Assembly (NCBI RefSeq): GCF_030384885.1
Contig: NZ_CP128613.1
Source of the DNA: Escherichia coli
GTDB taxonomy: Bacteria; Pseudomonadota; Gammaproteobacteria; Enterobacterales; Enterobacteriaceae
DNA: 64,000 nt
Direction: 5' to 3' (one strand)
Shown: positions 26,113 to 43,295 of the stretch, in pieces
Numbering within the stretch: the stretch's first letter is position 1
Layout: each line of letters begins with the position of its first letter
Notes under the pieces: model-generated
What the model saw: the letters and a program-made list of their open reading frames with translations, nothing else
Told to the model about the DNA's origin: nothing
The model's database searches: none
Position numbers and translations under genes: made by a program

Positions 26113-26126
26113 GGTGCGCATAATGT
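26113..26126. other. Left prophage-chromosome junction (dif-derived XerC arm fused to phage sequence)
   Basis: GGTGCGCATAATGT core followed by phage-derived CAACGCGTTATGTTGAAAAGG; sequence to the left differs from that left of the other two core copies, so it is chromosomal. Confidence 0.7.
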
Positions 26127-26210
26127 CAACGCGTTATGTTGAAAAGGCCGCTGCGAAAATCGAATCCCGCAGCGGCCTCTTTAGCATAACGTCATTGTGC
26201 GAACCAATAG

Positions 26211-27140
26211 CTACTTTTTCGTATAACTCTCTTCGCATTTAGCCAAAAACAGCAGATTAGTAGCGGTTAAATGAAGGGTATAACTCGCTAAATACTCAGG
26301 AACTTTTGTTATTTCTGCCCCTTGTCCATGTCCACCTTCTTTATTTCGAATGGTTGGAATACCACTCTCAAGTAGAATTCTTATTGAAGAAAATTGATTC
26401 TGGAGGTATTCAGGTACTAAATTATTTGCCAAACAACTGTTAATTAGTTTTTTAGCTGTGTCAGTATCATTAAATTGCCAAGAATGTTTTTTATGTATGG
26501 CTTTCATTAGACTTTCAAAAGATTTGAGGCAATCATTTAAACATTCTTTATATCGCTGATGTCTATAATGCTCATGGGCGGATAAAAACTCATCGTTTGC
26601 TCCGTTATAACTCTTGTTCTTACCAAGAATCTGAAGCGTAGGCTTTACAACATCAGAATGAATGAATTGTGAGTCAACTTTAACCAACTCTCCTGACTCA
26701 AATTGATATCCAAGACCTGCTTCTTTAAACCTGATATTAAGTTCTTCAATAGCATCATCAGGACTTTGCTTTACTAACCCTCTGAATTTCCACTCATTTG
26801 ATCTTATATACCCGTCTATCAGTTTGAAACATATCTCAATGATATCCAAGCATTTTTCATGATCTCTCTCAGCTAGGAAATAGTCAAAAATTGCCCCGAA
26901 ATTCGATTCAGGATACTGTTTGAGAGAGAATACACCATATTCCTTACACAGCGTTTTATGAACGAGTCTGTAAAGCTTACTTGCTTCCGTTTCATAGTCA
27001 CTATCTTCACCGATAGTATCTCTTACAATATGAACAACCTGAACACGAAATGCATTTGGTATATTCGTGTATTGGTAAACATCAGCTACTTCACCTCTTA
27101 ATTTTTTTTGTCTTTTTGAAAATAATTCGAATATAGCCAA
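26211..27140 (-). CDS. Prophage cargo: putative HEPN-domain (Abi_C/AbiJ-like) abortive-infection protein
   Basis: 309-aa ORF with a C-terminal R-x5-H-G motif (IRNKEGGHGQG) of the kind seen in HEPN/Abi_C RNase domains. Apparent TTG start with RBS GAGGA 7 nt upstream. Last gene of the leftward operon. Family assignment is from motif recall only. Confidence 0.5.
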   Translation of the reverse strand: MAIFELFSKRQKKLRGEVADVYQYTNIPNAFRVQVVHIVRDTIGEDSDYETEASKLYRLVHKTLCKEYGVFSLKQYPESNFGAIFDYFLAERDHEKCLDIIEICFKLIDGYIRSNEWKFRGLVKQSPDDAIEELNIRFKEAGLGYQFESGELVKVDSQFIHSDVVKPTLQILGKNKSYNGANDEFLSAHEHYRHQRYKECLNDCLKSFESLMKAIHKKHSWQFNDTDTAKKLINSCLANNLVPEYLQNQFSSIRILLESGIPTIRNKEGGHGQGAEITKVPEYLASYTLHLTATNLLFLAKCEESYTKK

Positions 27141-27223
27141 TTTATAATCCTCAAAGATATGCCATTAATATGTCTGAGTTGATGAAAATCACACCGCTTT
27201 TACAGTCGTTTTCCACGGTGGAG

Positions 27224-27646
27224 TTACCAGTAATATGAGTTTCTTCTGTGCCACCAATAAAGAAGTCCGTATCCAATGATAAGAATTCCGAAAAACATCA
27301 ACGACATTCCCCAGCCAGTTCCGTACCACGAAACCATATCATCGAAAACTAACCCACCCATTTCACGAACTCCGGCTGCTTCCTTAAGAATTGGTTTGAA
27401 TACCGGAATCAGAAGGGCGATCGCAAGTGGAGCACCCCAGCGAACAAGACCAGTTTCCATTTTGATCCCGAAAAAGATCCCCGCACCGACAACAAGCAAC
27501 CAGACTATCAGGCCAGGCGCAGTTTCTAGTGCTGTTTGCCATTCAACATCGAAAGTTTTCATTAGCCAGGCAACAACTGCCAGACAGAAAGCAAATACGC
27601 CTACAACAACCAGTTCAACGCCGCTTGTTTCGTTATTTCTACTCAT
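27224..27646 (-). CDS. Prophage cargo: small integral membrane protein (about 4 TM helices)
   Basis: Track ORF 27224-27793 trimmed to the internal ATG at 27646 (MSRNNETSGVELVVVGVFAF...) with RBS AAGGAT, which removes the overlap with the upstream gene. Four hydrophobic segments; function unknown. Confidence 0.55.
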   Translation of the reverse strand: MSRNNETSGVELVVVGVFAFCLAVVAWLMKTFDVEWQTALETAPGLIVWLLVVGAGIFFGIKMETGLVRWGAPLAIALLIPVFKPILKEAAGVREMGGLVFDDMVSWYGTGWGMSLMFFGILIIGYGLLYWWHRRNSYYW

Positions 27647-27734
27647 CCTTTTGATCCTTTGTTGCTGTTCAAAATCCGCACAATAAAGAACGTGCAGTGT
27701 AGGTAATACTGCACGTTTGTACCATTCGTGGTAC

Positions 27735-27917
27735 TTAATCCTTTTGTTTGGCAGACATGAGATCTTCTGCTGCATCTTTAGAGTAGTTATCAATCAGATA
27801 ACCTAAAATCTCTGTCCATGTAATTGTTTTTCCTAGTTTTACACTGGCATTTATAGCCAGTCGTTCTAGTTTCATTTTTCTTTCTTCCGTCACGTTATAA
27901 GTCGTGCGCTTTGCCAT
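27735..27917 (-). CDS. Small putative DNA-binding regulator (candidate phage repressor)
   Basis: 60-aa ORF divergently transcribed from gII, the position occupied by repressors in CTX-type phages; basic N-terminus (MAKRTTYNVTEERKMKLERLAI). Fold not verified. Confidence 0.4.
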   Translation of the reverse strand: MAKRTTYNVTEERKMKLERLAINASVKLGKTITWTEILGYLIDNYSKDAAEDLMSAKQKD

Positions 27918-27964
27918 TTTTTACGCTCGTTCAATGCAATATTTGAAGTGAGTATACATGCTCA

Positions 27965-28045
27965 TGAACTCATATCATCCAAGCCTCTTGAACTCACTAG
28001 CTCACTGGTGTAATGTTTAAACACTAATGAACTACTGAACTCATG
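27965..28045. promoter_or_regulatory. Divergent promoter/operator region with iterated TGAACTCA motifs
   Basis: TGAACTCA at 27965-27972, 27989-27996 and 28038-28045, plus the variant TGAACTAC at 28027-28034, between the regulator gene and gII. Confidence 0.5.
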
Positions 28046-28086
28046 TGTTAGTAAGTCGTCATTTTTGTAATTTTGAGGATTTATTC

Positions 28087-29139
28087 GTGATCGATTGGCT
28101 TACCGGGATTTTCCCTTGCACACACAAACCGCTTCCGGCGGGGAGTGTTGTCAGCGTTGATGCTGACGGTGCAATTGAGTGGGAAACCGTTAAGCGACTG
28201 ACTGTTCGCGGTTCGCATGAAGCAACGATGAAAGTACGATCGATAGGATCTAATGGCGAAGGTAAAGCGACACATTTGTACATTGATGGTAATCCTTCCA
28301 AGTTTCTGCAGGGGCATTCTGTTGTTGGGTCGGATGATATACAAGGGCTCATGTTGACGGTCTATGCCAGGATTTTATCCTTATTGAATATTCCTCATGA
28401 TTTAGCGGCTTATAAAGCCGTTATGGCAGGTCAGTATAAAATTTCACGTATTGACATTAATTACATGTATTCATTATCTACGCTGGAAAATGTCAGATCA
28501 TGGCTTTATGCCGCCGAATTTAAAGCTAAAACACGCCATGGTCGCGCATGTGGGAAAGGCGGTACAGTTTATTTAGGTAAAAACTCCCGTCGATGGAGTC
28601 TGAAATTTTATTCAAAATATGATGAACACGTTTCTGGTAAAAAAGGGCACCAGATAGCCGAAGAGTTTGTACGAGCCGGGTTACTGGACTGGACGAAAGA
28701 TAAATTACGTATTGAATTAACATTAAGAACAACTGAGCTTATTGATTTAAATTTAACGCTTGGCGCTAACTGGAATATGAAAACACCACGTCAATTATTC
28801 TCTGAATATGTAGGGAGAATAGAAATGAATCAGAATGCTATTTTAAGTGATGAAAAAATAACGAAACTGCCAAGAAAAATACAGTCAACTTATTTACTTT
28901 GGAAACAAGGGGCTAACATGAAAGAAATGTTACCTCATAACACTTTTTATCGCCATAGAAGAGAATTGCTTTCGTTCGGTATCGATATTAATTTCTATTG
29001 TGATTCACCAGACTCTAATAACGTTGTTCCGCTAATAAGAACGCTGGAAGCCAAGCCAGCGGAAATCCCCTTATGGATTTATGAGAAAGGTTTTATTTTC
29101 GATTACAACCGTATTTCGCACGCCAGTAGCTGGCATTAA
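28087..29139 (+). CDS. Replication initiation protein (gII-like rolling-circle nickase)
   Basis: Track ORF 28045-29139 (GTG). Preferred start is GTG 28087 with RBS GAGGA 7 nt upstream, giving N-terminus MIDWLTGIFPC... comparable to M13 pII MIDMLVLRLPF...; C-terminal NNVVPLIRT resembles pII NNVVPLVRF. Confidence 0.75.
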   Translation: MIDWLTGIFPCTHKPLPAGSVVSVDADGAIEWETVKRLTVRGSHEATMKVRSIGSNGEGKATHLYIDGNPSKFLQGHSVVGSDDIQGLMLTVYARILSLLNIPHDLAAYKAVMAGQYKISRIDINYMYSLSTLENVRSWLYAAEFKAKTRHGRACGKGGTVYLGKNSRRWSLKFYSKYDEHVSGKKGHQIAEEFVRAGLLDWTKDKLRIELTLRTTELIDLNLTLGANWNMKTPRQLFSEYVGRIEMNQNAILSDEKITKLPRKIQSTYLLWKQGANMKEMLPHNTFYRHRRELLSFGIDINFYCDSPDSNNVVPLIRTLEAKPAEIPLWIYEKGFIFDYNRISHASSWH

Positions 29140-29150
29140 AGGAAAGTAAT

Positions 29151-29468
29151 ATGTCTAATTATGGTCTTTTCGTTAAGGGTAAAATGTTGGGAGCCCGCCA
29201 ACGTAATAAAGTTAATGGTCAGGGCTATTATAATGAAATTGGTATTGGCCTTGAAATACCTGATGGTTTTGGTGGTACAAAGCAGGATCAAATTATTATT
29301 CGAGTTTCTCAGGCTCTCGTTAACGCAGGTCTAATGAACCAGGCGAATGCTTTCATTGGGAAATTAGTTCAAATTCCTGTCTATGTCCGTGCGTGGTCAA
29401 TGGAGGGTAGGGAAGGTGTAACTTATAATGTTTCTTCCGATGGTGGCATCGCAGAGATCAAAGGTTAA
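29151..29468 (+). CDS. ssDNA-binding protein (gV-like)
   Basis: 105-aa ORF immediately after gII with RBS AGGAAAG; position and size fit the inovirus ssDNA-binding protein. Confidence 0.65.
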   Translation: MSNYGLFVKGKMLGARQRNKVNGQGYYNEIGIGLEIPDGFGGTKQDQIIIRVSQALVNAGLMNQANAFIGKLVQIPVYVRAWSMEGREGVTYNVSSDGGIAEIKG

Positions 29469-29470
29469 AT

Positions 29471-29557
29471 ATGGACGATGTTATTCAAATTTTGATAGCG
29501 TCTGGCATCGTTATTTCTTTTGGCCTCGGCGCGATTACTGCGGGGGTCTTTCGTTAA
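29471..29557 (+). CDS. Minor coat protein (gVII-like), 28 aa
   Basis: MDDVIQILIASGIVISFGLGAITAGVFR resembles M13 g7p (MEQVADFDTIYQAMIQISVVLCFALGIIAGGQR). Below the ORF-track size cut-off; found by hand. Confidence 0.65.
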   Translation: MDDVIQILIASGIVISFGLGAITAGVFR

Positions 29558-29652
29558 TGTATATCGTTTATTTCTTCGGGGCTTATACCTTTGGTTTTGC
29601 CCTTTTCTATGCGGTCGGTTCATTTAAATCATTTTCTGACCGATTAATGTAA
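29557..29652 (+). CDS. Minor coat protein (gIX-like), 31 aa
   Basis: MYIVYFFGAYTFGFALFYAVGSFKSFSDRLM; start overlaps the gVII stop (TAATG) as in Ff phages; hydrophobic like M13 g9p. Confidence 0.6.
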   Translation: MYIVYFFGAYTFGFALFYAVGSFKSFSDRLM

Positions 29653-29671
29653 CCTTAATGGAGTTATTCCT

Positions 29672-29914
29672 ATGAAAATTCTGTCTACTGTTAAATATAA
29701 AGTTGCTCTGGCTTCAACTGCGCTTTTTATTTCTGCAAGTTCTTTTGCGGCTGAAGGCGCTACAGGTGGTACTGATTATGCAGGCCAGGCAATGGATGCT
29801 TTGTTGACTCAGGCAAATGATCTCATTGGTAAAGTATGGCCTGTTGTTGTGGCTGTGGTTGGCGCTGGGCTTGCCATTCGTATTTTCAAAAAATTCTCTT
29901 CAAAAGCGGTTTGA
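29672..29914 (+). CDS. Major coat protein (gVIII-like)
   Basis: 80-aa ORF with signal peptide ending SFAAEG and C-terminus [12 protein letters not shown], close to M13 g8p (...SFAAEG... IKLFKKFTSKAS). Confidence 0.9.
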
Positions 29915-29960
29915 ATTTCACTCAGGGGCACTCGTTGCCCCTTTATTAAAGCGGGTTACT

Positions 29961-31211
29961 ATGAAAAGGAAAATATTAATTCTTTCCGCTGTCCTCATTT
30001 CTCCTTTTTCACATGCTGAGTCATGGGAAAGCATTACTAAATCCACTTATCAAAGTTCTGCCTATGCTGAAAGTAAGCAAATAACCAATCAGGATGGCTC
30101 TAAGATAACGGTTTACTATATTGATGCTGCTATGCAGGCCTCCGCTTGTCAGGGTGCTAAATCCAGTGCTCAGAGTGTATTTACTCGGATTAAACCAACT
30201 TATGAGGGTATCTGGCCTGATTCTGAATTCCGTCTTGTTTTTACTGGCGATTGTACTTACAGCGATTCACCAGGGCAGAAGGATAAATATTGGTCTTTAA
30301 CGGCTTATATTGTTGGTAATATTCAGCGTTCTGTTCCTGATGAAAAACCTACTGACCCGACACCAGAAGAAATTTGTGAAGCGAAGCCGCCAGAAGAAGG
30401 TGTATTTAATAATGTTGATTCATATGATGGTGGTCGCTATATCTACTATAACGGCTGTGAATATGAGGCTACTGGTGTCATTGTTTGTCAGGGTGATGGT
30501 ACTGTTTGCGCTGCAACATGGAAGCCTACAGGTGCTGTAGCTGACCCCTCTGATAAACCCTCAACCCCCCAAAATGGTGGTGGTGAGTCTGGCGGTGGTG
30601 AGTCCGGCGGTGGTGAGTCCGGTGGTGGTGAGTCTGGCGGTGGTGAGTCCGGTGGCGGTAGTTCTGGCGGTGGCTCTAGTGGTTCCAGTCTTTCTAAAGG
30701 TGATATTCAGTCTGCGATCGAAGGTGCTTCACCCAAAATAGCCAGCGATATTCATGATAAATTAACGGAGAAAGACACTTCATCAGATGATAAAAAAAAT
30801 GCCGATGAACAAACCAGGAATAATATAAATCGTCTTGACGATTCCATTAACAATCTTACGCGGGGGGCTGGCCGTTTTGCTGACCCTTCAGGTGGTGATT
30901 CTCGTTATGGAAAGGGCGACTCTGAATTAGATGGCGCTTCTACTTTAGCTGATTCTGAATTGGGAATTGAAAAGGATTCTCACGGTGCTTTATGGGAAGC
31001 ATTTTTAAATAAAGGTGCTATGCTGCCTAATTTACCCAATGGTAACGGCTGCTCTGATTTTATTATTTTTCCCGGAGAGGTTTATCAGATTGATATTGGT
31101 TGCGATAAATTACTGACTATTAAAGATGTTCTTTCATGGGTTTTTTATTGCCTTACGTTCTGGTATGTCTTTACTTCTTTAACTTCATTGCTTCGCAAAG
31201 GGGGTGAGTGA
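29961..31211 (+). CDS. Adsorption protein (gIII-like) with Gly-rich linker
   Basis: Track ORF 29817-31211 trimmed to ATG 29961 ([19 protein letters not shown] signal peptide). GGGES x5 linker and C-terminal anchor (IDIGCDKLL...[17 protein letters not shown]) resemble M13 g3p. Confidence 0.85.
30575..30690 (+). repeat. Tandem 15-bp coding repeats (GGGES)n in the gIII linker
   Basis: Repeated ggtggtgagtc(c/t)ggc units read directly. Confidence 0.85.
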
Positions 31212-31552
31212 TGCCTTTATTATTAGGTATTCCTGCATTGTTGCGTTTTCTTATTGGTCTTGTTCCTTTGTTTATTGGCTATGTGGCGAGTTTTTTAGCT
31301 CGACTTGCTACCAGAACAGGATTAATTGCCTTTGCATTGGTCGCATTAATTACAACAACTGTTACGCTTTTAATGCAGTACCTTGCTGAGGTCATGTATA
31401 ACGGTTTACCTGCTGATTTCTCCCATTTAATGGCGTCTGTATTGCCTGACCATTTTCAGGCGTGTGTTAACGTTATTATGGTTACTCGTATCAGTGTTTT
31501 TGTTTTCGATTTAAAACAAAAATTTCTTGATTATGCAAACAGGGTGATTTAA
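31211..31552 (+). CDS. Minor coat protein (gVI-like)
   Basis: [24 protein letters not shown]... resembles M13 g6p MPVLLGIPLLLRFLGFLLVTLFGY...; ATG overlaps the gIII stop (TGATG). Confidence 0.85.
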   Translation: MPLLLGIPALLRFLIGLVPLFIGYVASFLARLATRTGLIAFALVALITTTVTLLMQYLAEVMYNGLPADFSHLMASVLPDHFQACVNVIMVTRISVFVFDLKQKFLDYANRVI

Positions 31553-32647
31553 ATGGCGGTTTATGTAGTAACAGGCAAATTAGGCTCAGGCAAGACACTT
31601 GTTAGTGTTTCCAGAATACAGGAAAGACTTGCTAAGGGTTGTCCTGTTGCCACTAATCTTGATCTTAAATTGCATAATATGCCTATGGTTGGGCGTTATG
31701 CGAAAAAAACGCGCGTTATTCGCATTCCTGACAAACCTTCATTAAATGATTTACTTGCTATTGGTACTGGGAATACATCTTACGATGAATCCCGTAATGG
31801 CCTCCTTGTACTTGATGAATGTGGTACTTGGTTTAATTCCCGCTCATGGGGTGATAAAGACAGGCAACCTGTTATTGACTGGTTTTTACATGCCAGAAAA
31901 TTAGGCTGGGATATTATATTTTTGATTCAGGATATTTCGATAATGGATAAGCAAGCTCGTCTGGCGCTTGCTGAGCATGTTGTTTATTGTCGCCGTTCAG
32001 ATAAATTAAACATTCCTTTTGTTGGCTCCATTATGAATTTGGTTTCAGGGGCGAGATTTTCTTTACCAAAGGTACACTTTGGCATTGTCAAATATGGTGA
32101 TAATGTTAATTCAATCACTGTTGATAAATGGATATATACAGGAAAATCTCTTTATTCTGCTTACAATACCAAACAAGCGTTCACAGATAATTATCCTCAT
32201 GGCGCATTTTCGCTTTTGCCACCATTTATCACGCACGGTCAATTTTCTGTTCACAGAGGATTTAATTATTATATGCGCCTCACTAAAATTTATTTTCGCA
32301 AATCGAACCGTCTTATATTAATGCTTTCTTTTTTGGCGCTGGGGCTTGCGTTTGGTTTCTGGCTCCAGTCTGGAAAGAATGTTGATGAAATCTCAGCTAT
32401 TAAATCTGCTTATGCTGAACAGGCGAGGGCGGTAACGCCTGATTCGTCCAGTGACTTACCCCGACTTTCTATTAATTCTTTTTCACAACTTGGCTTTGAC
32501 GTTTCCGTTACGTTTGTTGATGCAAAAGGTATGAAATATCAGTATTTTGATTTGATTAAAGATGGTTATTCCGTTGATATTAAAGATGCCTGTCGTGTTG
32601 TTATTAGAAAAGGCCGTTATTTACAGACTGTTACCTGTCAGGAGTAA
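31553..32647 (+). CDS. Assembly ATPase (gI-like; Zot family)
   Basis: MAVYVVTGKLGSGKTLVSV... resembles M13 g1p MAVYFVTGKLGSGKTLVSV...; Walker A GKLGSGKT; C-terminal TM segment. Confidence 0.9.
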   Translation: MAVYVVTGKLGSGKTLVSVSRIQERLAKGCPVATNLDLKLHNMPMVGRYAKKTRVIRIPDKPSLNDLLAIGTGNTSYDESRNGLLVLDECGTWFNSRSWGDKDRQPVIDWFLHARKLGWDIIFLIQDISIMDKQARLALAEHVVYCRRSDKLNIPFVGSIMNLVSGARFSLPKVHFGIVKYGDNVNSITVDKWIYTGKSLYSAYNTKQAFTDNYPHGAFSLLPPFITHGQFSVHRGFNYYMRLTKIYFRKSNRLILMLSFLALGLAFGFWLQSGKNVDEISAIKSAYAEQARAVTPDSSSDLPRLSINSFSQLGFDVSVTFVDAKGMKYQYFDLIKDGYSVDIKDACRVVIRKGRYLQTVTCQE

Positions 32648-32654
32648 TATTATT

Positions 32655-33920
32655 ATGCGCTCTGTTATTGTTGCTTTTTTATTTGCCTGTTCATTCTGCG
32701 TTTCTGCTGAAACTGTTAATTTAAATAATTCATCTGTTCGCTCATTTGTTCAGTGGTATTCTTCAAAAACTGGCAAGCCTGTTATTGTTAATCCTGATAT
32801 TAAAGGAAACGTAACCGTATTTAATGCTGATGTTAATCCAGCAAATATTGATGATTTCTTTAAGTCTGTTCTGAATGCTAACGGTTTTGTCATGCTTTCT
32901 GGCAATCCTGCGGTAGTCTCTTTGCCGTCTAAATTACCTTCACAGATGGTTTCGGATTCCGATGATTCTGATAACCAGTCTTATGATACTTTTCCTTCTG
33001 AGCCATCTTACCAGCCAGTACCTGTGGCGCTTACGGTCAGAAATTTTAAGCTGACAAAAGTTAGATCGTCCGATGTTCAGCAACTGATTAAAATTTATCT
33101 TGATTCTAATGGTGGTGGTAATGTCGTGGATTATCCAGGCAATAACTCGCTGATTGTTTCTGCGCCTGACGAGCTGCTGCCGGTTCTGTCCGATTTTATC
33201 AATTCTGTGGATGTTGCCCGCGATCAGGTTCTCATTCAGTCGCTGATGTTTGAAACCAGCTTGTCTGATGGCGTTGATTTATCGTTTGCGGCAGGTTCTG
33301 CATCCGGTCATAAGGTTGCGGGGGGCTTTAATACTTCTGCACTGGGTAGCGCTCTTTCTACGGCGGGCGGTTCTTTTGGTATTTTTGATGGTAACGTGTT
33401 GGCGCTGTCTCTGCGTGCTGTCCAGAGTAATTCACGCTCTAAGGTGATTTCAACGCCGCGTATTCTTACTCAGTCTGGTCAGACTGGTTACATTTCCGTA
33501 GGTAAGAATGTGCCGTTTATCACCGGAAAGGTAACGGGCGAATCTGCCGGGGTAAATAATCCGTTTCAGACTATCGAGCGTCATGATGTTGGCGTTTCTC
33601 TCAAGGTAACGCCTGTTGTCATGGGTAACGGGCAACTAGTTCTGACTATCGACACTCGCGCTGATTCAATCAGCAATGATGATCAGGCATCCGATATTAT
33701 TACTAATCAGCGCCAGATTCAGACGACAGTCCAGATTAAGGATGGTCAGACGTTGTTATTGGGAGGGCTTATCGATTCATCGTTCAGCAATGCCGAGCGT
33801 TCAGTTCCAGTTATAAGTAAAATTCCTCTTATAGGCTGGATTTTCAGTAGCAAGGCAGACAGCAATGAACAGCGTATTATGTATATTTTGCTTACAGCAC
33901 ATATCATTCGTCCACTTTGA
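32655..33920 (+). CDS. Outer-membrane secretin (gIV-like)
   Basis: Track ORF 32562-33920 trimmed to ATG 32655 (MRSVIVAFLFACSFCVSA signal peptide). Secretin C-domain (GQTLLLGGLIDSSFSNAERSVPVISKIPLIGWIFSS) resembles M13 g4p. Confidence 0.9.
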   Translation: MRSVIVAFLFACSFCVSAETVNLNNSSVRSFVQWYSSKTGKPVIVNPDIKGNVTVFNADVNPANIDDFFKSVLNANGFVMLSGNPAVVSLPSKLPSQMVSDSDDSDNQSYDTFPSEPSYQPVPVALTVRNFKLTKVRSSDVQQLIKIYLDSNGGGNVVDYPGNNSLIVSAPDELLPVLSDFINSVDVARDQVLIQSLMFETSLSDGVDLSFAAGSASGHKVAGGFNTSALGSALSTAGGSFGIFDGNVLALSLRAVQSNSRSKVISTPRILTQSGQTGYISVGKNVPFITGKVTGESAGVNNPFQTIERHDVGVSLKVTPVVMGNGQLVLTIDTRADSISNDDQASDIITNQRQIQTTVQIKDGQTLLLGGLIDSSFSNAERSVPVISKIPLIGWIFSSKADSNEQRIMYILLTAHIIRPL

Positions 33921-33962
33921 TGGATAGCGGGTAGGTGCGTGAGCCCTGCTCGCTATCCATCA
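33918..33962 (+). other. Strong stem-loop after gIV (candidate packaging signal, origin element or terminator)
   Basis: Perfect 12-bp inverted repeat TGATGGATAGCG / CGCTATCCATCA around a 21-nt loop, with no trailing T-run. Confidence 0.5.
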
Positions 33963-33989
33963 AATGGACATTATTGATTGGGGTAACTA

Positions 33990-34298: not shown

Positions 34299-34415
34299 TA
34301 ACCCCGGACAATGACAAAACTTGCTTTTGTTAGTGTCAGGGGTTGGCCAAGCCGAACAATTCTGTTTTTTTAGCGTTATTGCTGATTCGGCGCGGCAGCA
34401 TTACGAGGAGATAAA

Positions 34416-35715: not shown

Positions 35716-35798
35716 TTTATAATCCTCAAAGATATGCCATTAATATGTCTGAGTTGATGAAAATCACACCGCTTTTACAGTCGTTTTCCACGGTGGAG

Positions 35799-36221
35799 TT
35801 ACCAGTAATATGAGTTTCTTCTGTGCCACCAATAAAGAAGTCCGTATCCAATGATAAGAATTCCGAAAAACATCAACGACATTCCCCAGCCAGTTCCGTA
35901 CCACGAAACCATATCATCGAAAACTAACCCACCCATTTCACGAACTCCGGCTGCTTCCTTAAGAATTGGTTTGAATACCGGAATCAGAAGGGCGATCGCA
36001 AGTGGAGCACCCCAGCGAACAAGACCAGTTTCCATTTTGATCCCGAAAAAGATCCCCGCACCGACAACAAGCAACCAGACTATCAGGCCAGGCGCAGTTT
36101 CTAGTGCTGTTTGCCATTCAACATCGAAAGTTTTCATTAGCCAGGCAACAACTGCCAGACAGAAAGCAAATACGCCTACAACAACCAGTTCAACGCCGCT
36201 TGTTTCGTTATTTCTACTCAT
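35799..36221 (-). CDS. Copy 2: small integral membrane protein
   Basis: Identical to 27224-27646 (offset +8575). Confidence 0.55.
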   Translation of the reverse strand: MSRNNETSGVELVVVGVFAFCLAVVAWLMKTFDVEWQTALETAPGLIVWLLVVGAGIFFGIKMETGLVRWGAPLAIALLIPVFKPILKEAAGVREMGGLVFDDMVSWYGTGWGMSLMFFGILIIGYGLLYWWHRRNSYYW

Positions 36222-36309
36222 CCTTTTGATCCTTTGTTGCTGTTCAAAATCCGCACAATAAAGAACGTGCAGTGTAGGTAATACTGCACGTTTGTACCAT
36301 TCGTGGTAC

Positions 36310-36492
36310 TTAATCCTTTTGTTTGGCAGACATGAGATCTTCTGCTGCATCTTTAGAGTAGTTATCAATCAGATAACCTAAAATCTCTGTCCATGTAATT
36401 GTTTTTCCTAGTTTTACACTGGCATTTATAGCCAGTCGTTCTAGTTTCATTTTTCTTTCTTCCGTCACGTTATAAGTCGTGCGCTTTGCCAT
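36310..36492 (-). CDS. Copy 2: small putative DNA-binding regulator
   Basis: Identical to 27735-27917 (offset +8575). Confidence 0.4.
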   Translation of the reverse strand: MAKRTTYNVTEERKMKLERLAINASVKLGKTITWTEILGYLIDNYSKDAAEDLMSAKQKD

Positions 36493-36539
36493 TTTTTACG
36501 CTCGTTCAATGCAATATTTGAAGTGAGTATACATGCTCA

Positions 36540-36620
36540 TGAACTCATATCATCCAAGCCTCTTGAACTCACTAGCTCACTGGTGTAATGTTTAAACACT
36601 AATGAACTACTGAACTCATG
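36540..36620. promoter_or_regulatory. Copy 2: TGAACTCA iteron/operator region
   Basis: Identical to 27965-28045 (offset +8575). Confidence 0.5.
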
Positions 36621-36661
36621 TGTTAGTAAGTCGTCATTTTTGTAATTTTGAGGATTTATTC

Positions 36662-37714
36662 GTGATCGATTGGCTTACCGGGATTTTCCCTTGCACACAC
36701 AAACCGCTTCCGGCGGGGAGTGTTGTCAGCGTTGATGCTGACGGTGCAATTGAGTGGGAAACCGTTAAGCGACTGACTGTTCGCGGTTCGCATGAAGCAA
36801 CGATGAAAGTACGATCGATAGGATCTAATGGCGAAGGTAAAGCGACACATTTGTACATTGATGGTAATCCTTCCAAGTTTCTGCAGGGGCATTCTGTTGT
36901 TGGGTCGGATGATATACAAGGGCTCATGTTGACGGTCTATGCCAGGATTTTATCCTTATTGAATATTCCTCATGATTTAGCGGCTTATAAAGCCGTTATG
37001 GCAGGTCAGTATAAAATTTCACGTATTGACATTAATTACATGTATTCATTATCTACGCTGGAAAATGTCAGATCATGGCTTTATGCCGCCGAATTTAAAG
37101 CTAAAACACGCCATGGTCGCGCATGTGGGAAAGGCGGTACAGTTTATTTAGGTAAAAACTCCCGTCGATGGAGTCTGAAATTTTATTCAAAATATGATGA
37201 ACACGTTTCTGGTAAAAAAGGGCACCAGATAGCCGAAGAGTTTGTACGAGCCGGGTTACTGGACTGGACGAAAGATAAATTACGTATTGAATTAACATTA
37301 AGAACAACTGAGCTTATTGATTTAAATTTAACGCTTGGCGCTAACTGGAATATGAAAACACCACGTCAATTATTCTCTGAATATGTAGGGAGAATAGAAA
37401 TGAATCAGAATGCTATTTTAAGTGATGAAAAAATAACGAAACTGCCAAGAAAAATACAGTCAACTTATTTACTTTGGAAACAAGGGGCTAACATGAAAGA
37501 AATGTTACCTCATAACACTTTTTATCGCCATAGAAGAGAATTGCTTTCGTTCGGTATCGATATTAATTTCTATTGTGATTCACCAGACTCTAATAACGTT
37601 GTTCCGCTAATAAGAACGCTGGAAGCCAAGCCAGCGGAAATCCCCTTATGGATTTATGAGAAAGGTTTTATTTTCGATTACAACCGTATTTCGCACGCCA
37701 GTAGCTGGCATTAA
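36662..37714 (+). CDS. Copy 2: replication initiation protein (gII-like)
   Basis: Identical to 28087-29139 (offset +8575). Confidence 0.75.
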   Translation: MIDWLTGIFPCTHKPLPAGSVVSVDADGAIEWETVKRLTVRGSHEATMKVRSIGSNGEGKATHLYIDGNPSKFLQGHSVVGSDDIQGLMLTVYARILSLLNIPHDLAAYKAVMAGQYKISRIDINYMYSLSTLENVRSWLYAAEFKAKTRHGRACGKGGTVYLGKNSRRWSLKFYSKYDEHVSGKKGHQIAEEFVRAGLLDWTKDKLRIELTLRTTELIDLNLTLGANWNMKTPRQLFSEYVGRIEMNQNAILSDEKITKLPRKIQSTYLLWKQGANMKEMLPHNTFYRHRRELLSFGIDINFYCDSPDSNNVVPLIRTLEAKPAEIPLWIYEKGFIFDYNRISHASSWH

Positions 37715-37725
37715 AGGAAAGTAAT

Positions 37726-38043
37726 ATGTCTAATTATGGTCTTTTCGTTAAGGGTAAAATGTTGGGAGCCCGCCAACGTAATAAAGTTAATGGTCAGGGC
37801 TATTATAATGAAATTGGTATTGGCCTTGAAATACCTGATGGTTTTGGTGGTACAAAGCAGGATCAAATTATTATTCGAGTTTCTCAGGCTCTCGTTAACG
37901 CAGGTCTAATGAACCAGGCGAATGCTTTCATTGGGAAATTAGTTCAAATTCCTGTCTATGTCCGTGCGTGGTCAATGGAGGGTAGGGAAGGTGTAACTTA
38001 TAATGTTTCTTCCGATGGTGGCATCGCAGAGATCAAAGGTTAA
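37726..38043 (+). CDS. Copy 2: ssDNA-binding protein (gV-like)
   Basis: Identical to 29151-29468 (offset +8575). Confidence 0.65.
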   Translation: MSNYGLFVKGKMLGARQRNKVNGQGYYNEIGIGLEIPDGFGGTKQDQIIIRVSQALVNAGLMNQANAFIGKLVQIPVYVRAWSMEGREGVTYNVSSDGGIAEIKG

Positions 38044-38045
38044 AT

Positions 38046-38132
38046 ATGGACGATGTTATTCAAATTTTGATAGCGTCTGGCATCGTTATTTCTTTTGGCC
38101 TCGGCGCGATTACTGCGGGGGTCTTTCGTTAA
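38046..38132 (+). CDS. Copy 2: gVII-like minor coat protein
   Basis: Identical to 29471-29557 (offset +8575). Confidence 0.65.
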   Translation: MDDVIQILIASGIVISFGLGAITAGVFR

Positions 38133-38227
38133 TGTATATCGTTTATTTCTTCGGGGCTTATACCTTTGGTTTTGCCCTTTTCTATGCGGTCGGTTCATTT
38201 AAATCATTTTCTGACCGATTAATGTAA
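38132..38227 (+). CDS. Copy 2: gIX-like minor coat protein
   Basis: Identical to 29557-29652 (offset +8575). Confidence 0.6.
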   Translation: MYIVYFFGAYTFGFALFYAVGSFKSFSDRLM

Positions 38228-38246
38228 CCTTAATGGAGTTATTCCT

Positions 38247-38489
38247 ATGAAAATTCTGTCTACTGTTAAATATAAAGTTGCTCTGGCTTCAACTGCGCTT
38301 TTTATTTCTGCAAGTTCTTTTGCGGCTGAAGGCGCTACAGGTGGTACTGATTATGCAGGCCAGGCAATGGATGCTTTGTTGACTCAGGCAAATGATCTCA
38401 TTGGTAAAGTATGGCCTGTTGTTGTGGCTGTGGTTGGCGCTGGGCTTGCCATTCGTATTTTCAAAAAATTCTCTTCAAAAGCGGTTTGA
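38247..38489 (+). CDS. Copy 2: major coat protein (gVIII-like)
   Basis: Identical to 29672-29914 (offset +8575). Confidence 0.9.
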
Positions 38490-38535
38490 ATTTCACTCAG
38501 GGGCACTCGTTGCCCCTTTATTAAAGCGGGTTACT

Positions 38536-39786
38536 ATGAAAAGGAAAATATTAATTCTTTCCGCTGTCCTCATTTCTCCTTTTTCACATGCTGAGTCATG
38601 GGAAAGCATTACTAAATCCACTTATCAAAGTTCTGCCTATGCTGAAAGTAAGCAAATAACCAATCAGGATGGCTCTAAGATAACGGTTTACTATATTGAT
38701 GCTGCTATGCAGGCCTCCGCTTGTCAGGGTGCTAAATCCAGTGCTCAGAGTGTATTTACTCGGATTAAACCAACTTATGAGGGTATCTGGCCTGATTCTG
38801 AATTCCGTCTTGTTTTTACTGGCGATTGTACTTACAGCGATTCACCAGGGCAGAAGGATAAATATTGGTCTTTAACGGCTTATATTGTTGGTAATATTCA
38901 GCGTTCTGTTCCTGATGAAAAACCTACTGACCCGACACCAGAAGAAATTTGTGAAGCGAAGCCGCCAGAAGAAGGTGTATTTAATAATGTTGATTCATAT
39001 GATGGTGGTCGCTATATCTACTATAACGGCTGTGAATATGAGGCTACTGGTGTCATTGTTTGTCAGGGTGATGGTACTGTTTGCGCTGCAACATGGAAGC
39101 CTACAGGTGCTGTAGCTGACCCCTCTGATAAACCCTCAACCCCCCAAAATGGTGGTGGTGAGTCTGGCGGTGGTGAGTCCGGCGGTGGTGAGTCCGGTGG
39201 TGGTGAGTCTGGCGGTGGTGAGTCCGGTGGCGGTAGTTCTGGCGGTGGCTCTAGTGGTTCCAGTCTTTCTAAAGGTGATATTCAGTCTGCGATCGAAGGT
39301 GCTTCACCCAAAATAGCCAGCGATATTCATGATAAATTAACGGAGAAAGACACTTCATCAGATGATAAAAAAAATGCCGATGAACAAACCAGGAATAATA
39401 TAAATCGTCTTGACGATTCCATTAACAATCTTACGCGGGGGGCTGGCCGTTTTGCTGACCCTTCAGGTGGTGATTCTCGTTATGGAAAGGGCGACTCTGA
39501 ATTAGATGGCGCTTCTACTTTAGCTGATTCTGAATTGGGAATTGAAAAGGATTCTCACGGTGCTTTATGGGAAGCATTTTTAAATAAAGGTGCTATGCTG
39601 CCTAATTTACCCAATGGTAACGGCTGCTCTGATTTTATTATTTTTCCCGGAGAGGTTTATCAGATTGATATTGGTTGCGATAAATTACTGACTATTAAAG
39701 ATGTTCTTTCATGGGTTTTTTATTGCCTTACGTTCTGGTATGTCTTTACTTCTTTAACTTCATTGCTTCGCAAAGGGGGTGAGTGA
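38536..39786 (+). CDS. Copy 2: adsorption protein (gIII-like)
   Basis: Identical to 29961-31211 (offset +8575). Confidence 0.85.
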
Positions 39787-40127
39787 TGCCTTTATTATTA
39801 GGTATTCCTGCATTGTTGCGTTTTCTTATTGGTCTTGTTCCTTTGTTTATTGGCTATGTGGCGAGTTTTTTAGCTCGACTTGCTACCAGAACAGGATTAA
39901 TTGCCTTTGCATTGGTCGCATTAATTACAACAACTGTTACGCTTTTAATGCAGTACCTTGCTGAGGTCATGTATAACGGTTTACCTGCTGATTTCTCCCA
40001 TTTAATGGCGTCTGTATTGCCTGACCATTTTCAGGCGTGTGTTAACGTTATTATGGTTACTCGTATCAGTGTTTTTGTTTTCGATTTAAAACAAAAATTT
40101 CTTGATTATGCAAACAGGGTGATTTAA
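39786..40127 (+). CDS. Copy 2: gVI-like minor coat protein
   Basis: Identical to 31211-31552 (offset +8575). Confidence 0.85.
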   Translation: MPLLLGIPALLRFLIGLVPLFIGYVASFLARLATRTGLIAFALVALITTTVTLLMQYLAEVMYNGLPADFSHLMASVLPDHFQACVNVIMVTRISVFVFDLKQKFLDYANRVI

Positions 40128-41222
40128 ATGGCGGTTTATGTAGTAACAGGCAAATTAGGCTCAGGCAAGACACTTGTTAGTGTTTCCAGAATACAGGAAA
40201 GACTTGCTAAGGGTTGTCCTGTTGCCACTAATCTTGATCTTAAATTGCATAATATGCCTATGGTTGGGCGTTATGCGAAAAAAACGCGCGTTATTCGCAT
40301 TCCTGACAAACCTTCATTAAATGATTTACTTGCTATTGGTACTGGGAATACATCTTACGATGAATCCCGTAATGGCCTCCTTGTACTTGATGAATGTGGT
40401 ACTTGGTTTAATTCCCGCTCATGGGGTGATAAAGACAGGCAACCTGTTATTGACTGGTTTTTACATGCCAGAAAATTAGGCTGGGATATTATATTTTTGA
40501 TTCAGGATATTTCGATAATGGATAAGCAAGCTCGTCTGGCGCTTGCTGAGCATGTTGTTTATTGTCGCCGTTCAGATAAATTAAACATTCCTTTTGTTGG
40601 CTCCATTATGAATTTGGTTTCAGGGGCGAGATTTTCTTTACCAAAGGTACACTTTGGCATTGTCAAATATGGTGATAATGTTAATTCAATCACTGTTGAT
40701 AAATGGATATATACAGGAAAATCTCTTTATTCTGCTTACAATACCAAACAAGCGTTCACAGATAATTATCCTCATGGCGCATTTTCGCTTTTGCCACCAT
40801 TTATCACGCACGGTCAATTTTCTGTTCACAGAGGATTTAATTATTATATGCGCCTCACTAAAATTTATTTTCGCAAATCGAACCGTCTTATATTAATGCT
40901 TTCTTTTTTGGCGCTGGGGCTTGCGTTTGGTTTCTGGCTCCAGTCTGGAAAGAATGTTGATGAAATCTCAGCTATTAAATCTGCTTATGCTGAACAGGCG
41001 AGGGCGGTAACGCCTGATTCGTCCAGTGACTTACCCCGACTTTCTATTAATTCTTTTTCACAACTTGGCTTTGACGTTTCCGTTACGTTTGTTGATGCAA
41101 AAGGTATGAAATATCAGTATTTTGATTTGATTAAAGATGGTTATTCCGTTGATATTAAAGATGCCTGTCGTGTTGTTATTAGAAAAGGCCGTTATTTACA
41201 GACTGTTACCTGTCAGGAGTAA
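40128..41222 (+). CDS. Copy 2: assembly ATPase (gI/Zot-like)
   Basis: Identical to 31553-32647 (offset +8575). Confidence 0.9.
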   Translation: MAVYVVTGKLGSGKTLVSVSRIQERLAKGCPVATNLDLKLHNMPMVGRYAKKTRVIRIPDKPSLNDLLAIGTGNTSYDESRNGLLVLDECGTWFNSRSWGDKDRQPVIDWFLHARKLGWDIIFLIQDISIMDKQARLALAEHVVYCRRSDKLNIPFVGSIMNLVSGARFSLPKVHFGIVKYGDNVNSITVDKWIYTGKSLYSAYNTKQAFTDNYPHGAFSLLPPFITHGQFSVHRGFNYYMRLTKIYFRKSNRLILMLSFLALGLAFGFWLQSGKNVDEISAIKSAYAEQARAVTPDSSSDLPRLSINSFSQLGFDVSVTFVDAKGMKYQYFDLIKDGYSVDIKDACRVVIRKGRYLQTVTCQE

Positions 41223-41229
41223 TATTATT

Positions 41230-42495
41230 ATGCGCTCTGTTATTGTTGCTTTTTTATTTGCCTGTTCATTCTGCGTTTCTGCTGAAACTGTTAATTTAAA
41301 TAATTCATCTGTTCGCTCATTTGTTCAGTGGTATTCTTCAAAAACTGGCAAGCCTGTTATTGTTAATCCTGATATTAAAGGAAACGTAACCGTATTTAAT
41401 GCTGATGTTAATCCAGCAAATATTGATGATTTCTTTAAGTCTGTTCTGAATGCTAACGGTTTTGTCATGCTTTCTGGCAATCCTGCGGTAGTCTCTTTGC
41501 CGTCTAAATTACCTTCACAGATGGTTTCGGATTCCGATGATTCTGATAACCAGTCTTATGATACTTTTCCTTCTGAGCCATCTTACCAGCCAGTACCTGT
41601 GGCGCTTACGGTCAGAAATTTTAAGCTGACAAAAGTTAGATCGTCCGATGTTCAGCAACTGATTAAAATTTATCTTGATTCTAATGGTGGTGGTAATGTC
41701 GTGGATTATCCAGGCAATAACTCGCTGATTGTTTCTGCGCCTGACGAGCTGCTGCCGGTTCTGTCCGATTTTATCAATTCTGTGGATGTTGCCCGCGATC
41801 AGGTTCTCATTCAGTCGCTGATGTTTGAAACCAGCTTGTCTGATGGCGTTGATTTATCGTTTGCGGCAGGTTCTGCATCCGGTCATAAGGTTGCGGGGGG
41901 CTTTAATACTTCTGCACTGGGTAGCGCTCTTTCTACGGCGGGCGGTTCTTTTGGTATTTTTGATGGTAACGTGTTGGCGCTGTCTCTGCGTGCTGTCCAG
42001 AGTAATTCACGCTCTAAGGTGATTTCAACGCCGCGTATTCTTACTCAGTCTGGTCAGACTGGTTACATTTCCGTAGGTAAGAATGTGCCGTTTATCACCG
42101 GAAAGGTAACGGGCGAATCTGCCGGGGTAAATAATCCGTTTCAGACTATCGAGCGTCATGATGTTGGCGTTTCTCTCAAGGTAACGCCTGTTGTCATGGG
42201 TAACGGGCAACTAGTTCTGACTATCGACACTCGCGCTGATTCAATCAGCAATGATGATCAGGCATCCGATATTATTACTAATCAGCGCCAGATTCAGACG
42301 ACAGTCCAGATTAAGGATGGTCAGACGTTGTTATTGGGAGGGCTTATCGATTCATCGTTCAGCAATGCCGAGCGTTCAGTTCCAGTTATAAGTAAAATTC
42401 CTCTTATAGGCTGGATTTTCAGTAGCAAGGCAGACAGCAATGAACAGCGTATTATGTATATTTTGCTTACAGCACATATCATTCGTCCACTTTGA
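41230..42495 (+). CDS. Copy 2: secretin (gIV-like)
   Basis: Identical to 32655-33920 (offset +8575). Confidence 0.9.
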   Translation: MRSVIVAFLFACSFCVSAETVNLNNSSVRSFVQWYSSKTGKPVIVNPDIKGNVTVFNADVNPANIDDFFKSVLNANGFVMLSGNPAVVSLPSKLPSQMVSDSDDSDNQSYDTFPSEPSYQPVPVALTVRNFKLTKVRSSDVQQLIKIYLDSNGGGNVVDYPGNNSLIVSAPDELLPVLSDFINSVDVARDQVLIQSLMFETSLSDGVDLSFAAGSASGHKVAGGFNTSALGSALSTAGGSFGIFDGNVLALSLRAVQSNSRSKVISTPRILTQSGQTGYISVGKNVPFITGKVTGESAGVNNPFQTIERHDVGVSLKVTPVVMGNGQLVLTIDTRADSISNDDQASDIITNQRQIQTTVQIKDGQTLLLGGLIDSSFSNAERSVPVISKIPLIGWIFSSKADSNEQRIMYILLTAHIIRPL

Positions 42496-42537
42496 TGGAT
42501 AGCGGGTAGGTGCGTGAGCCCTGCTCGCTATCCATCA
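42493..42537 (+). other. Copy 2: stem-loop after gIV
   Basis: Identical to 33918-33962 (offset +8575). Confidence 0.5.
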
Positions 42538-42564
42538 AATGGACATTATTGATTGGGGTAACTA

Positions 42565-42873
42565 ATGGATTCTTATGGGATTTTATCTGCTCTGGCAGAA
42601 CGAACGATTACAGCGGAAGAAGCAAAAACAATGACACTTGCAGCCAGAAGTTCTTCGGCTCAGGTAAATGAAGCATCACTTGCTCTGTTACTGATTGATA
42701 ATACTCTGGATGCGATCAAAGCAGCTGCCAGTGAAGGGAAAGGATACACTTTACTTCCTTCTTATGAGATTTCTGTAAAAGCCATTGATTTAGCAGAAGA
42801 ATTTTTAAGGAAACAATGCGGCTATGTTATTGATAACCAGAATGGCGTAAGGACGGTCTATTGGTTTATATGA
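42565..42873 (+). CDS. Copy 2: hypothetical 102-aa cargo protein
   Basis: Identical to 33990-34298 (offset +8575). Confidence 0.45.
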   Translation: MDSYGILSALAERTITAEEAKTMTLAARSSSAQVNEASLALLLIDNTLDAIKAAASEGKGYTLLPSYEISVKAIDLAEEFLRKQCGYVIDNQNGVRTVYWFI

Positions 42874-42990
42874 TAACCCCGGACAATGACAAAACTTGCT
42901 TTTGTTAGTGTCAGGGGTTGGCCAAGCCGAACAATTCTGTTTTTTTAGCGTTATTGCTGATTCGGCGCGGCAGCATTACGAGGAGATAAA

Positions 42991-43224
42991 ATGCAATTTT
43001 TCACATCCAGCGATACTGTAATGTTATGTGCGAAGACCTGCGATCGCTGTGGTCGCCATGCGAAGACGGTGGTAGATGACATTGAGTTCAATGAGTTTCT
43101 GTCTGTTAATCACTTAGCTGGATACGGTTCAATTTTTGGTGACAGTAATCGCTTAAAACTGGATTTATGCCAACATTGCCTGAAAGACGTCCTGGGCCAG
43201 TGGATTACGGTCTGTGACCAATGA
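42991..43224 (+). CDS. Copy 2: zinc-ribbon cargo protein
   Basis: Identical to 34416-34649 (offset +8575). Confidence 0.5.
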   Translation: MQFFTSSDTVMLCAKTCDRCGRHAKTVVDDIEFNEFLSVNHLAGYGSIFGDSNRLKLDLCQHCLKDVLGQWITVCDQ

Positions 43225-43262
43225 CGGCACCGGTAACGCCAGTTCCCGCCATCCTTACCATT

Positions 43263-43290
43263 GGTGCGCATAATGTATATTATGTTAAAT
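43263..43290. other. dif: Chromosomal dif site (XerC/XerD dimer-resolution site), intact
   Basis: Exact match to the E. coli dif consensus GGTGCGCATAATGTATATTATGTTAAAT, read directly; forms the right prophage junction. Confidence 0.9.
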
Positions 43291-43295
43291 AGCCT

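Follow-up and report, generated by a model that had tools for sequence, protein, structure and literature searches.

The closest described relatives of the element treated here are the UPφ viruses, a group of filamentous phages (inoviruses) reported by Shapiro & Putonti (2020, Virus Evol 6:veaa030, PMC7307601). Their genomes have a core resembling IKe and I2-2, their nearest relatives among characterised phages (~70% amino acid identity for the covered genes), whereas gII and gV are >85% identical to those of Ypfφ and the remainder is unrelated to Ypfφ. Two genes of unknown function, h1 and h2, lie between gIV and the dif-like site, the prophages are integrated at dif, and the reverse-strand open reading frames (ORFs) adjoining dif comprise the conserved h3 and others that are variable. 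The number of GGGES repeats in pIII varies as well, tandem triples are reported, as in the ECONIH2 prophage that served as case study, and a provisional placement in Lineavirus was proposed. The window analysed in this work is a 64,000-nucleotide (nt) stretch of Escherichia coli DNA (contig NZ_CP128613.1, assembly GCF_030384885.1), and its positions 26113–43290 are very probably a tandem dimer of a temperate inovirus of the UPφ type, integrated at the E. coli dif by XerC and XerD, recombinases of the host.

Two further systems are relevant to the comparison. CUS-1 and Ypfφ share ~99% nucleotide identity across a core of roughly 7.1 kb (PMC4266046), and 2–4 tandem copies are given for Ypfφ in the literature. 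Both phages are listed as CTXφ-type integrative mobile elements exploiting Xer (IMEX; PMC4246890). In this type the substrate is single-stranded DNA (ssDNA), that is, attP(+), on which XerC acts first; the reaction is completed by replication, integration is irreversible and phage genomes are produced by rolling circle from tandem prophages. The role of the tandem array in enabling phage production is established for CTXφ (PMC4246890).

The exact 28-bp dif GGTGCGCATAATGTATATTATGTTAAAT, which is the E. coli K-12 dif as listed in PMC2731167, occurs a single time in the window (43263–43290), and shuffled versions of the window gave zero matches to it. Its first 14 bp, GGTGCGCATAATGT, are found only at 26113, 34688 and 43263, with a chance expectation of 0.06 matches. 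These positions delimit two units (26113–34687 and 34688–43262, the second copy also on the + strand), each of 8,575 bp and 100% identical with 0 mismatches, and every feature of copy 1 is repeated in copy 2 at +8,575. The same phage sequence follows both phage-side sites (26113 and 34688). Identity between the repeat start and dif stops after 14 bp, and leftward of the repeat it runs for 2 bp only. The preliminary description had placed an exact dif at the right end, the XerC-arm core at two more positions and two apparently identical inovirus copies between them; all three sites were located, and the observation of a tandem dimer at dif is confirmed in full. The gene hipA ends at 26036, 76 bp upstream of the insert, which is the normal neighbourhood of dif, and the GC content of the insert is ~40–41% as compared with ~50% in the left flank. 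GC skew over the window was uninformative, with no clear inflection at dif on this scale.

The three junctions differ in structure. The left one, attL (26113–26144, + strand), consists of the XerC arm GGTGCGCATAA and TGT, which are common to dif, followed by the phage bulge CAACGCG and the XerD-like arm TTATGTTGAAA, and is equal to site 1 of attP. The junction between the copies (34685–34783, + strand) is a complete attP(+), with site 1, a GC-rich inner stem-loop and the inverted site 2. The right one, attR (43263–43290, + strand), is an intact, regenerated dif, which can still serve to resolve chromosome dimers and to receive further integrations.

All 12 non-cargo proteins of the unit (the core, h1, h2 and h3) are 98–100% identical to those of the ECONIH2 prophage, with the 60-amino acid (aa) h3 at 100% and a different cargo, and this establishes the UPφ membership. 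The characters of the group are all present, namely the IKe gene order, gII and gV products >85% identical to Ypfφ, the h1/h2 pair and the reverse-strand ORFs adjacent to dif. Judged from its sequence, the phage of the window is a member of the published group in the usual configuration of that group, and it is already known. The same variant is found in the RefSeq genomes NZ_CP062855 and NZ_LR134152 (99.1–99.6% identity). The closest relative, NZ_CP062855, matches 100% of the unit at 99.6% identity and likewise holds a tandem, whose second copy is partly deleted. A megablast search of the phage collection returned a single match of 190 bp, in gIV of IKe and PEar phages, and no match to UPφ or to CUS-1/Ypfφ.

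An identity with CUS-1 was considered and rejected, as the phage of the window aligns to Ypfφ and to the prophage of E. coli NC101 over gII–gV only, at ~80% nucleotide identity. The NC101 prophage is itself of the CUS type: the Ypfφ unit of Y. pestis (locus L006, 8,742 bp) is 99.4% identical to it over 7.5 kb, which matches the published relationship between CUS-1 and Ypfφ. A comparison with dif-integrating inoviruses of the CUS type had been advised in the preliminary description. Integration at dif and the type of gII, gV and attP are shared with these phages, but the element is a UPφ and not CUS-1 itself.

Profile matches found all the Ff/IKe-type genes in the unit, including the gVIII, gIII, gVI, gI and gIV that had been recognised by eye at first. 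In copy 1 these genes lie on the + strand. Replication is represented by gII, the rolling-circle initiator of the rep_II_X family (28087–29139; TIGR01629, 1.7e-76; phrog_702), and by a gV-like gene for an ssDNA-binding protein (29151–29468; named ‘DNA-binding protein’ in RefSeq). The minor coat genes gVII (29471–29557) and gIX (29557–29652), matched by phrog_19107 and phrog_28333, are followed by gVIII for the major coat protein (29672–29914; phrog_1646, 5.8e-33), gIII for the attachment protein with its GGGES repeats (29961–31211; phrog_4150) and gVI for another minor coat protein (31211–31552; phrog_1944). The assembly ATPase gene gI, which is Zot-like (31553–32647; phrog_1675 ‘protein I of M13’, 2.5e-177), and the secretin gene gIV (32655–33920; phrog_1012 ‘protein IV of M13’) complete the set.

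The virion and assembly proteins correspond to those of IKe in the same gene order (pVII 70%, pVIII 59%, pIII 50% over its full length, pVI 52%, pI 66% and pIV 72% identity), and pI and pIV are 54% and 50% identical to M13. Compared with the Ypfφ/CUS-type proteins, pIV reaches 27%, and pVII, pVIII, pIII, pVI and pI have no match there. Different affinities were found for the replication proteins. The identity of pII to Ypfφ/CUS-type is 86.3%, and to IKe 28% over 68 residues only; pV is 94.3% identical to Ypfφ/CUS-type and has no match in IKe or M13. On these grounds, and since the IKe origin is absent and the phage is integrated at dif, a replication module of the IKe type with a purely episomal life, as in Lineavirus, was rejected. 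By comparison of these modules, the genome is a mosaic, with an IKe-like part for virion and assembly (gVII, gIX, gVIII, gIII, gVI, gI, gIV and the packaging hairpin). The replication module (gII and gV) and the attachment site are of the CUS-1/Ypfφ type, and probably so is the candidate origin at 27688–27734.

The UPφ-specific pair described in PMC7307601 follows gIV on the + strand, with h1 (33990–34298, 102 aa) and h2 (34416–34649, 77 aa, with a CxxC...CxxC pattern). The two genes match phrog_4115 and phrog_5435, both of unknown function, and their products are 99–100% identical to those of ECONIH2, UM146 and a circular Salmonella form of the phage that is described below. In the protein comparison they were absent from IKe, M13, the CUS-type phages and Ypfφ.

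Three genes lie on the opposite strand next to dif. The first encodes the 309-aa cargo protein (26211–27140), with AbiJ_NTD4 and DUF7014/Abi_C (HEPN-like) domains, and the second a 140-aa predicted membrane protein (27224–27646; phrog_4174), which is present in most UPφ variants and in some CUS-type variants. The third is the 60-aa h3 of UPφ (27735–27917; phrog_2503). From its position, where CTXφ has rstR, it is a putative repressor; in the CUS-type phage this position is taken by a helix-turn-helix (HTH) protein. Pfam gave no match for this regulator candidate or for h2, and NCBIfam gave nothing for the 140-aa membrane protein, h1, h2 and h3. No ORF of the unit matched a tyrosine or serine recombinase family, and those left unassigned are too small to be one, in agreement with the earlier claim that the element has no recombinase of its own.

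In the divergent intergenic region between the candidate regulator h3 and gII (27918–28086, and again at +8,575), 3–4 copies of a GAACTCA/GAACTAC motif were noticed. They are possible operators or pII-binding repeats.

The attachment site has the form expected of a CTXφ-type element. Site 1, directly continuing the shared 14 bp, reads GGTGCGCATAA-TGTCAACGCG-TTATGTTGAAA. Site 2 is inverted and lies ~35 nt beyond it (26179–26205 in copy 1, − strand), where the minus-strand reading is GGTTCGCACAA-TGACG-TTATGCTAAAG. When folded as DNA, the + strand of 34685–34783 is predicted to form one long hairpin of ~100 nt (−33.5 kcal/mol, z = −7.95), in which the XerC arms are paired with each other, the XerD arms likewise, and a 5-nt bulge stands immediately after GGTGCGCATAATG. 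The fold of the minus strand is weaker (−31.3 kcal/mol), because several of the pairs are G·T on the + strand.

The fold is also supported by covariation. In an alignment of 22 distinct attP variants, drawn from genomes and IMG/VR, 97.8% of the cells are standard-paired and 10 pairs are changed on both sides; none of 500 shuffles reached the observed values, and slid controls were 28–52% paired. The TGT is invariant, and the bulge following it is freely variable (CAACGCG, ACGACTCG, TCCACACG and GCCACACG). These results uphold the proposal that the element exploits Xer in the manner of CTXφ, and argue in silico for an attP composed of two inverted dif-like sites that would fold in ssDNA. For the attachment of UPφ, only the presence of a dif copy in the genome is stated in PMC7307601, and the folded two-site attP is thus a small addition.

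The side of the crossover can be deduced from the products. In Y. pestis, attL has the host arm variant GGTGCACATAA and the junction between copies has the phage arm, which places the crossover 3′ of arm position 6. The arm of the Brenneria phage, GGTTCGCATAA, is identical to the XerC-side arm of the Erwinia carotovora dif listed in PMC2731167. In the window, the hybrid attL and the intact dif at attR suggest a product structure that fits a crossover on the XerC side.

The same attP design was encountered in high-GC viral contigs of IMG/VR (loci L041, L046, L053, L057, L059 and L085), which are unrelated in sequence. The order in these is a XerC arm, TGT, a short stretch that varies, TTATGTT, a GC-rich stem-loop and then an inverted partner, AATATAACC-CGCA-TT(G/A)TGCG. 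An attP folded from two sites may therefore occur beyond the CTXφ and CUS/Ypfφ groups.

The candidate (+)-strand origin for the shared pII is an intergenic double hairpin (27688–27734, + strand), which reads AACGTGCAGT-GTAGGTAAT-ACTGCACGTT and then GTACCA-TTCG-TGGTAC. It is kept in every phage with this pII type (UPφ, CUS-type, Ypfφ, Brenneria and K. spallanzanii), and its second stem covaries (GTCTCA/TGAGAC). Several boundaries of mosaic blocks fall at the same place, namely at Ypfφ position 919 between Ypfφ and NC101, at unit position 1633 between the window and NC101, and at 1550 in the circular Salmonella form. Such breakpoints are the pattern predicted by the hybrid-genome model of CTXφ, in which replication starts from one origin and ends at the next in the array (Davis & Waldor 2000, as cited in PMC7307601 and PMC4246890). 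The nick-site consensus of Ff, GTTCTTTAATAGTGGAC, had no match with up to 3 mismatches allowed, and the origin sequences of IKe were not found either, which fits a foreign replication module.

The hairpin over the gIV stop codon (33916–33964, + strand, with 20-nt arms that are 90% complementary) is a candidate packaging (morphogenetic) signal. It is included in a 75-nt stretch that is 72% identical, and in the same orientation, to the IKe region with the annotated morphogenetic signal (6141–6196). This is an indication that the packaging signal travels with the IKe-like assembly module. Ff and IKe package the + strand, and the orientation of the hairpin supports the + strand as the packaged one here. 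A promoter and terminator scan of the accessory region gave counts no higher than in shuffled sequence and was not used.

The tandem arrangement is not special to the window. At least 80% of the phage is present in 46 of 5,426 complete E. coli genomes, and the junction between copies, searched as the 200 bp of the phage right end plus the first 100 bp of the next copy with a coverage of at least 80%, is present in 33 genomes. When compared with the 46 carriers (~70%), these show that this phage usually occurs in tandem. The CUS-type prophage of NC101 (locus L010, 1701–20236) is also a tandem dimer at dif.

Forms of the phage outside the chromosome are known as well. The DNA of UPφ901 is shed into supernatants in a DNase-resistant form (PMC7307601). 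A circular entry of 7,938 bp from Salmonella enterica (NZ_CP140410.1, locus L012), deposited as an unnamed non-mobilizable plasmid, is a complete UPφ-type genome, 99.2–99.8% identical to the phage of the window outside the cargo and with a cargo of its own, a Doc-family toxin. It is most likely a replicative form. By analogy with CTXφ, phage production from the tandem array would be expected in the window too.

Contigs of UPφ or CUS type with E. coli flanks were also met in metagenome-assembled genomes labelled Bacteroides, Ruminococcaceae, Aerococcus and Candidatus Nanosynbacter (loci L003, L005, L008 and L009). These labels are almost certainly binning errors.

The following course of events is proposed for the locus. 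The packaged + strand would fold its attP, with the two inverted dif-like sites, into a hairpin that imitates duplex dif, in which TGT comes after a perfect XerC arm. XerC would then exchange one strand pair with dif, and replication would resolve the intermediate. The outcome would be a left end with the hybrid attL, a right end where dif is intact and, between them, a prophage that as double-stranded DNA is no longer able to fold its attP, so that integration would be effectively irreversible. The tandem state could arise by a second integration or by duplication. From the array, pII would nick the origin of copy 1 and rolling-circle synthesis would cross the junction up to the origin of copy 2, giving a unit-length + strand with attP restored.

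Several points weigh against this account. The dependence on Xer, the use of ssDNA as substrate and the placing of the origin are argued by analogy, and the copy number depends on one assembled sequence and is not checkable from the window alone. The double hairpin lies immediately 3′ of the regulator gene, whose terminator it may simply be; similarly, attP has an inner GC stem flanked by T-runs that resembles a bidirectional terminator, which could explain part of the conservation. For Ypfφ, homologous recombination between copies was proposed as another route to episomes and to changes of copy number. Furthermore, no new infections were obtained with UPφ901, whose infectivity is unproven (Shapiro & Putonti, PMC7307601).

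The last two of these points would also suit a domesticated, non-productive pair of prophages, kept for its AbiJ-like HEPN cargo or for h1/h2 and duplicated by homologous recombination or unequal crossing-over, and the resemblance of the cargo to a defence gene is in line with such a history. However, the genes are intact in both copies and 98–100% identical to those of phages for which shedding of DNA is documented, and Salmonella has this phage type as an episomal circle. Near-identical phages across several genera are moreover a sign of recent horizontal spread. Domestication is for these reasons considered unlikely.

A second alternative concerns the mode of integration. In phages of the VGJφ type, the double-stranded replicative form recombines through a single site with a long central region, and here site 1 alone, with its perfect XerC arm and an XerD-like arm with 2 mismatches, would be that site; integration would then be reversible, with phage released through excision by Xer, and the tandem state incidental. 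Identity of the central region on the XerC side only is common to CTXφ-type and VGJφ-type sites (PMC4246890) and is compatible with both. The spacer of site 1, on the other hand, has 10 nt compared with 6 nt in dif, the inverted partner is conserved with compensatory changes in the 22 variants, whose bulge between TGT and the XerD arm is free to vary, and the G·T pairs favour the fold of the + strand. Reviews also place Ypfφ and CUS-1φ, which share this attP, in the CTXφ type (PMC4246890). The VGJφ-type route is consequently considered unlikely.

An assembly artefact, in which a single prophage together with a circular replicative form, or with excess read depth, was assembled as two copies, is very improbable: the copies are 100% identical and reads <8.6 kb cannot prove their arrangement, a replicative form exists for this phage type, and the UPφ authors say that short-read assemblies leave the copy number unresolved (PMC7307601), but the three junction contexts (chromosome–phage, phage–phage and phage–dif) are those of a true tandem, the same junction is present in 33 complete genomes, the internal deletion in the second copy of NZ_CP062855 marks that copy as no assembly duplicate, and tandems from double to quadruple are on record for UPφ and Ypfφ.

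A tandem dimer of a UPφ-type phage, integrated by XerC/XerD, is thus the preferred reading, and its cargo adjacent to dif is the one distinctive part of the phage of the window. The 309-aa protein matches Pfam AbiJ_NTD4 (8.6e-27) and DUF7014 (1.8e-77), the NF046078 family (STM4504/CBY_0614; 456 bits) and PADLOC PDC-S32 (4.5e-10). It has 3,230 homologues, and those listed carry precomputed Pfam Abi_C and AbiJ_NTD4 domains. Twelve homologues of ~70% identity all keep R265-x5-H271, a motif of the HEPN Rx4-6H type. From these matches, the protein is a candidate abortive-infection, defence or toxin effector.

The cargo differs among phages that are otherwise close, and is shared by others that are distant. 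In ECONIH2 and UM146, a zinc-binding ORF pair occupies its position instead of the AbiJ-like gene. The CUS-type prophage of NC101 encodes the same cargo protein (100% aa identity), within a block of unit positions 1–1633 that is 98.5% identical in nucleotides, and this near-identical left block indicates a recent exchange of the left end between the UPφ and CUS-type lineages.

A comparison of the collected loci (L001–L100) showed at least 17 different modules over ~30 loci in the slot from attP site 2 to the double hairpin (26206–27687 in the window). For instance, TIR-domain proteins are found there, as is a PD-(D/E)XK nuclease related to restriction endonucleases associated with prokaryotic Argonaute (pAgo; 1.3e-34) and paired with DUF6953. 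Other modules are a Doc/Fic toxin, a ‘mobilome CxxCx(11)CxxC’ protein and pairs of a zinc-ribbon and a membrane protein. The 140-aa membrane protein is kept beside the double hairpin in most variants of the slot. Among inoviruses, Pf phages are already reported to carry defence cargo, and the slot accordingly extends a known theme without a new principle.

It is possible, though doubtful at present, that this slot is an exchangeable cargo site shared by UPφ and CUS-1/Ypfφ, inovirus lineages without relationship in other respects, with a relic on IncF-type conjugative plasmids. It would be filled with candidate anti-phage effectors (AbiJ-like HEPN, TIR, PD-(D/E)XK and Doc/Fic), and its cassettes would be swapped by rolling-circle replication from origin to origin over mixed tandem arrays at dif. 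If true, the tandem state would serve the shuffling of cargo between phages besides phage production.

Parts of the attachment site were also seen on plasmids. More than 400 plasmids, mostly conjugative IncF plasmids of E. coli and Klebsiella, have a copy of ~90 bp (90–95% identical) of part of the attP hairpin (loci concerned: 26145–26205 of the window and +8,575; L101, 4990–6013; L011, 4001–4093 and 6875). In an E. coli IncF plasmid, the right half of attP, that is, the inner GC stem and site 2, adjoins a 60%-identical homologue of the AbiJ-like cargo, and a dif-like site, TGTGCGCACAATCTATCTTATGTTAAAT, is ~2.7 kb off. In a K. pneumoniae plasmid, a XerC-like arm and TGT precede the hairpin, and a homologue of h2 (64% aa identity) and the dif-like AGTGCGCATAACAAAGATTATGTTAAAT follow within 2.9 kb. 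These copies look like relics of elements integrated by Xer at plasmid dimer-resolution sites.

In the neighbourhood of dif on its right side, the window contains an ORF of 477 aa (44992–46425, − strand) with 60-bp tandem repeats at 45111–45770. Its leucine-rich repeats match those in the type III effectors SspH2 and SlrP (1.4e-51, which stays far under the cut-off of the family), and in RefSeq relatives ankyrin-repeat and NEL-type E3 ligase proteins are annotated here. This neighbourhood is rare, with at least 80% of 43291–51000 present in only two of the 5,426 complete E. coli genomes. In an E. coli-like contig (locus L009, 4811–8258), a 3.4-kb element is placed between a degenerate dif-like site, AGTGCGCATAATGTGTTGAACATGTTAAAT, and the attL of a UPφ. 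Both its ends have a duplicate of ~25 bp of chromosomal sequence that stands left of dif, and it shows no relationship to the phage or the plasmid relic. Possibly it is a further dif-associated island, stacked with the phage.

The value of these results is mainly in annotation, since they mark the strain as a UPφ lysogen. UPφ is widespread in Enterobacterales and was enriched among urinary isolates in the 2020 study (PMC7307601). The phage occupies dif without destroying it, and its candidate abortive-infection gene could alter the susceptibility of the host to other phages. The phage group, its Xer-dependent lifestyle and the tandem arrays are already published, and no new question is opened. 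Modest additions are the in-silico support for a folded attP of the CTXφ type in UPφ, the candidate origin and a first functional reading of the variable ORFs adjacent to dif, several of which have defence-like domains.

Compared with the known systems, the phage of the window shares the order gVII-gIX-gVIII-gIII-gVI-gI-gIV with IKe and I2-2 of Lineavirus and with the Ff phages (M13), at 50–72% aa identity to IKe. On the contrary, gII, gV and the origins of IKe and Ff are of another type, and these phages are episomal only, have no dif-like site and lack accessory genes in their intergenic region.

CTXφ of Vibrio cholerae, the prototype IMEX, has the same design, with inverted dif-like sites in an ssDNA attP(+) and a crossover on the XerC side. 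Similarly, dif is regenerated at the right end, tandem arrays are formed, a divergent regulator stands beside the replication gene and accessory genes are placed at the genome ends. The two phages are unrelated in sequence, however, both in attP and in the compared genes, and their cargo differs, as ctxAB is not in the phage of the window. The mechanism has been demonstrated for CTXφ, and for the phage of the window it is proposed from that likeness.

CUS-1 of E. coli K1 and Ypfφ of Yersinia pestis come closer, with a nearly identical attP hairpin, a conserved candidate origin block, insertion at dif without an integrase and tandem arrays. Their structural and assembly genes are nevertheless unrelated at the nucleotide level, with only pIV detectable (27% aa identity), their regulator is an HTH protein in place of the 60-aa protein, and h1 and h2 are absent.

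The UPφ phages themselves, such as UPφ901 and ECONIH2, agree with the phage of the window in gene order, integration at dif, lack of an integrase, tandem repeats and GGGES variation. From the prophages of ECONIH2 and UM146 it differs only in the cargo adjacent to dif, where an AbiJ-like HEPN gene stands in place of their zinc-binding ORF pair.

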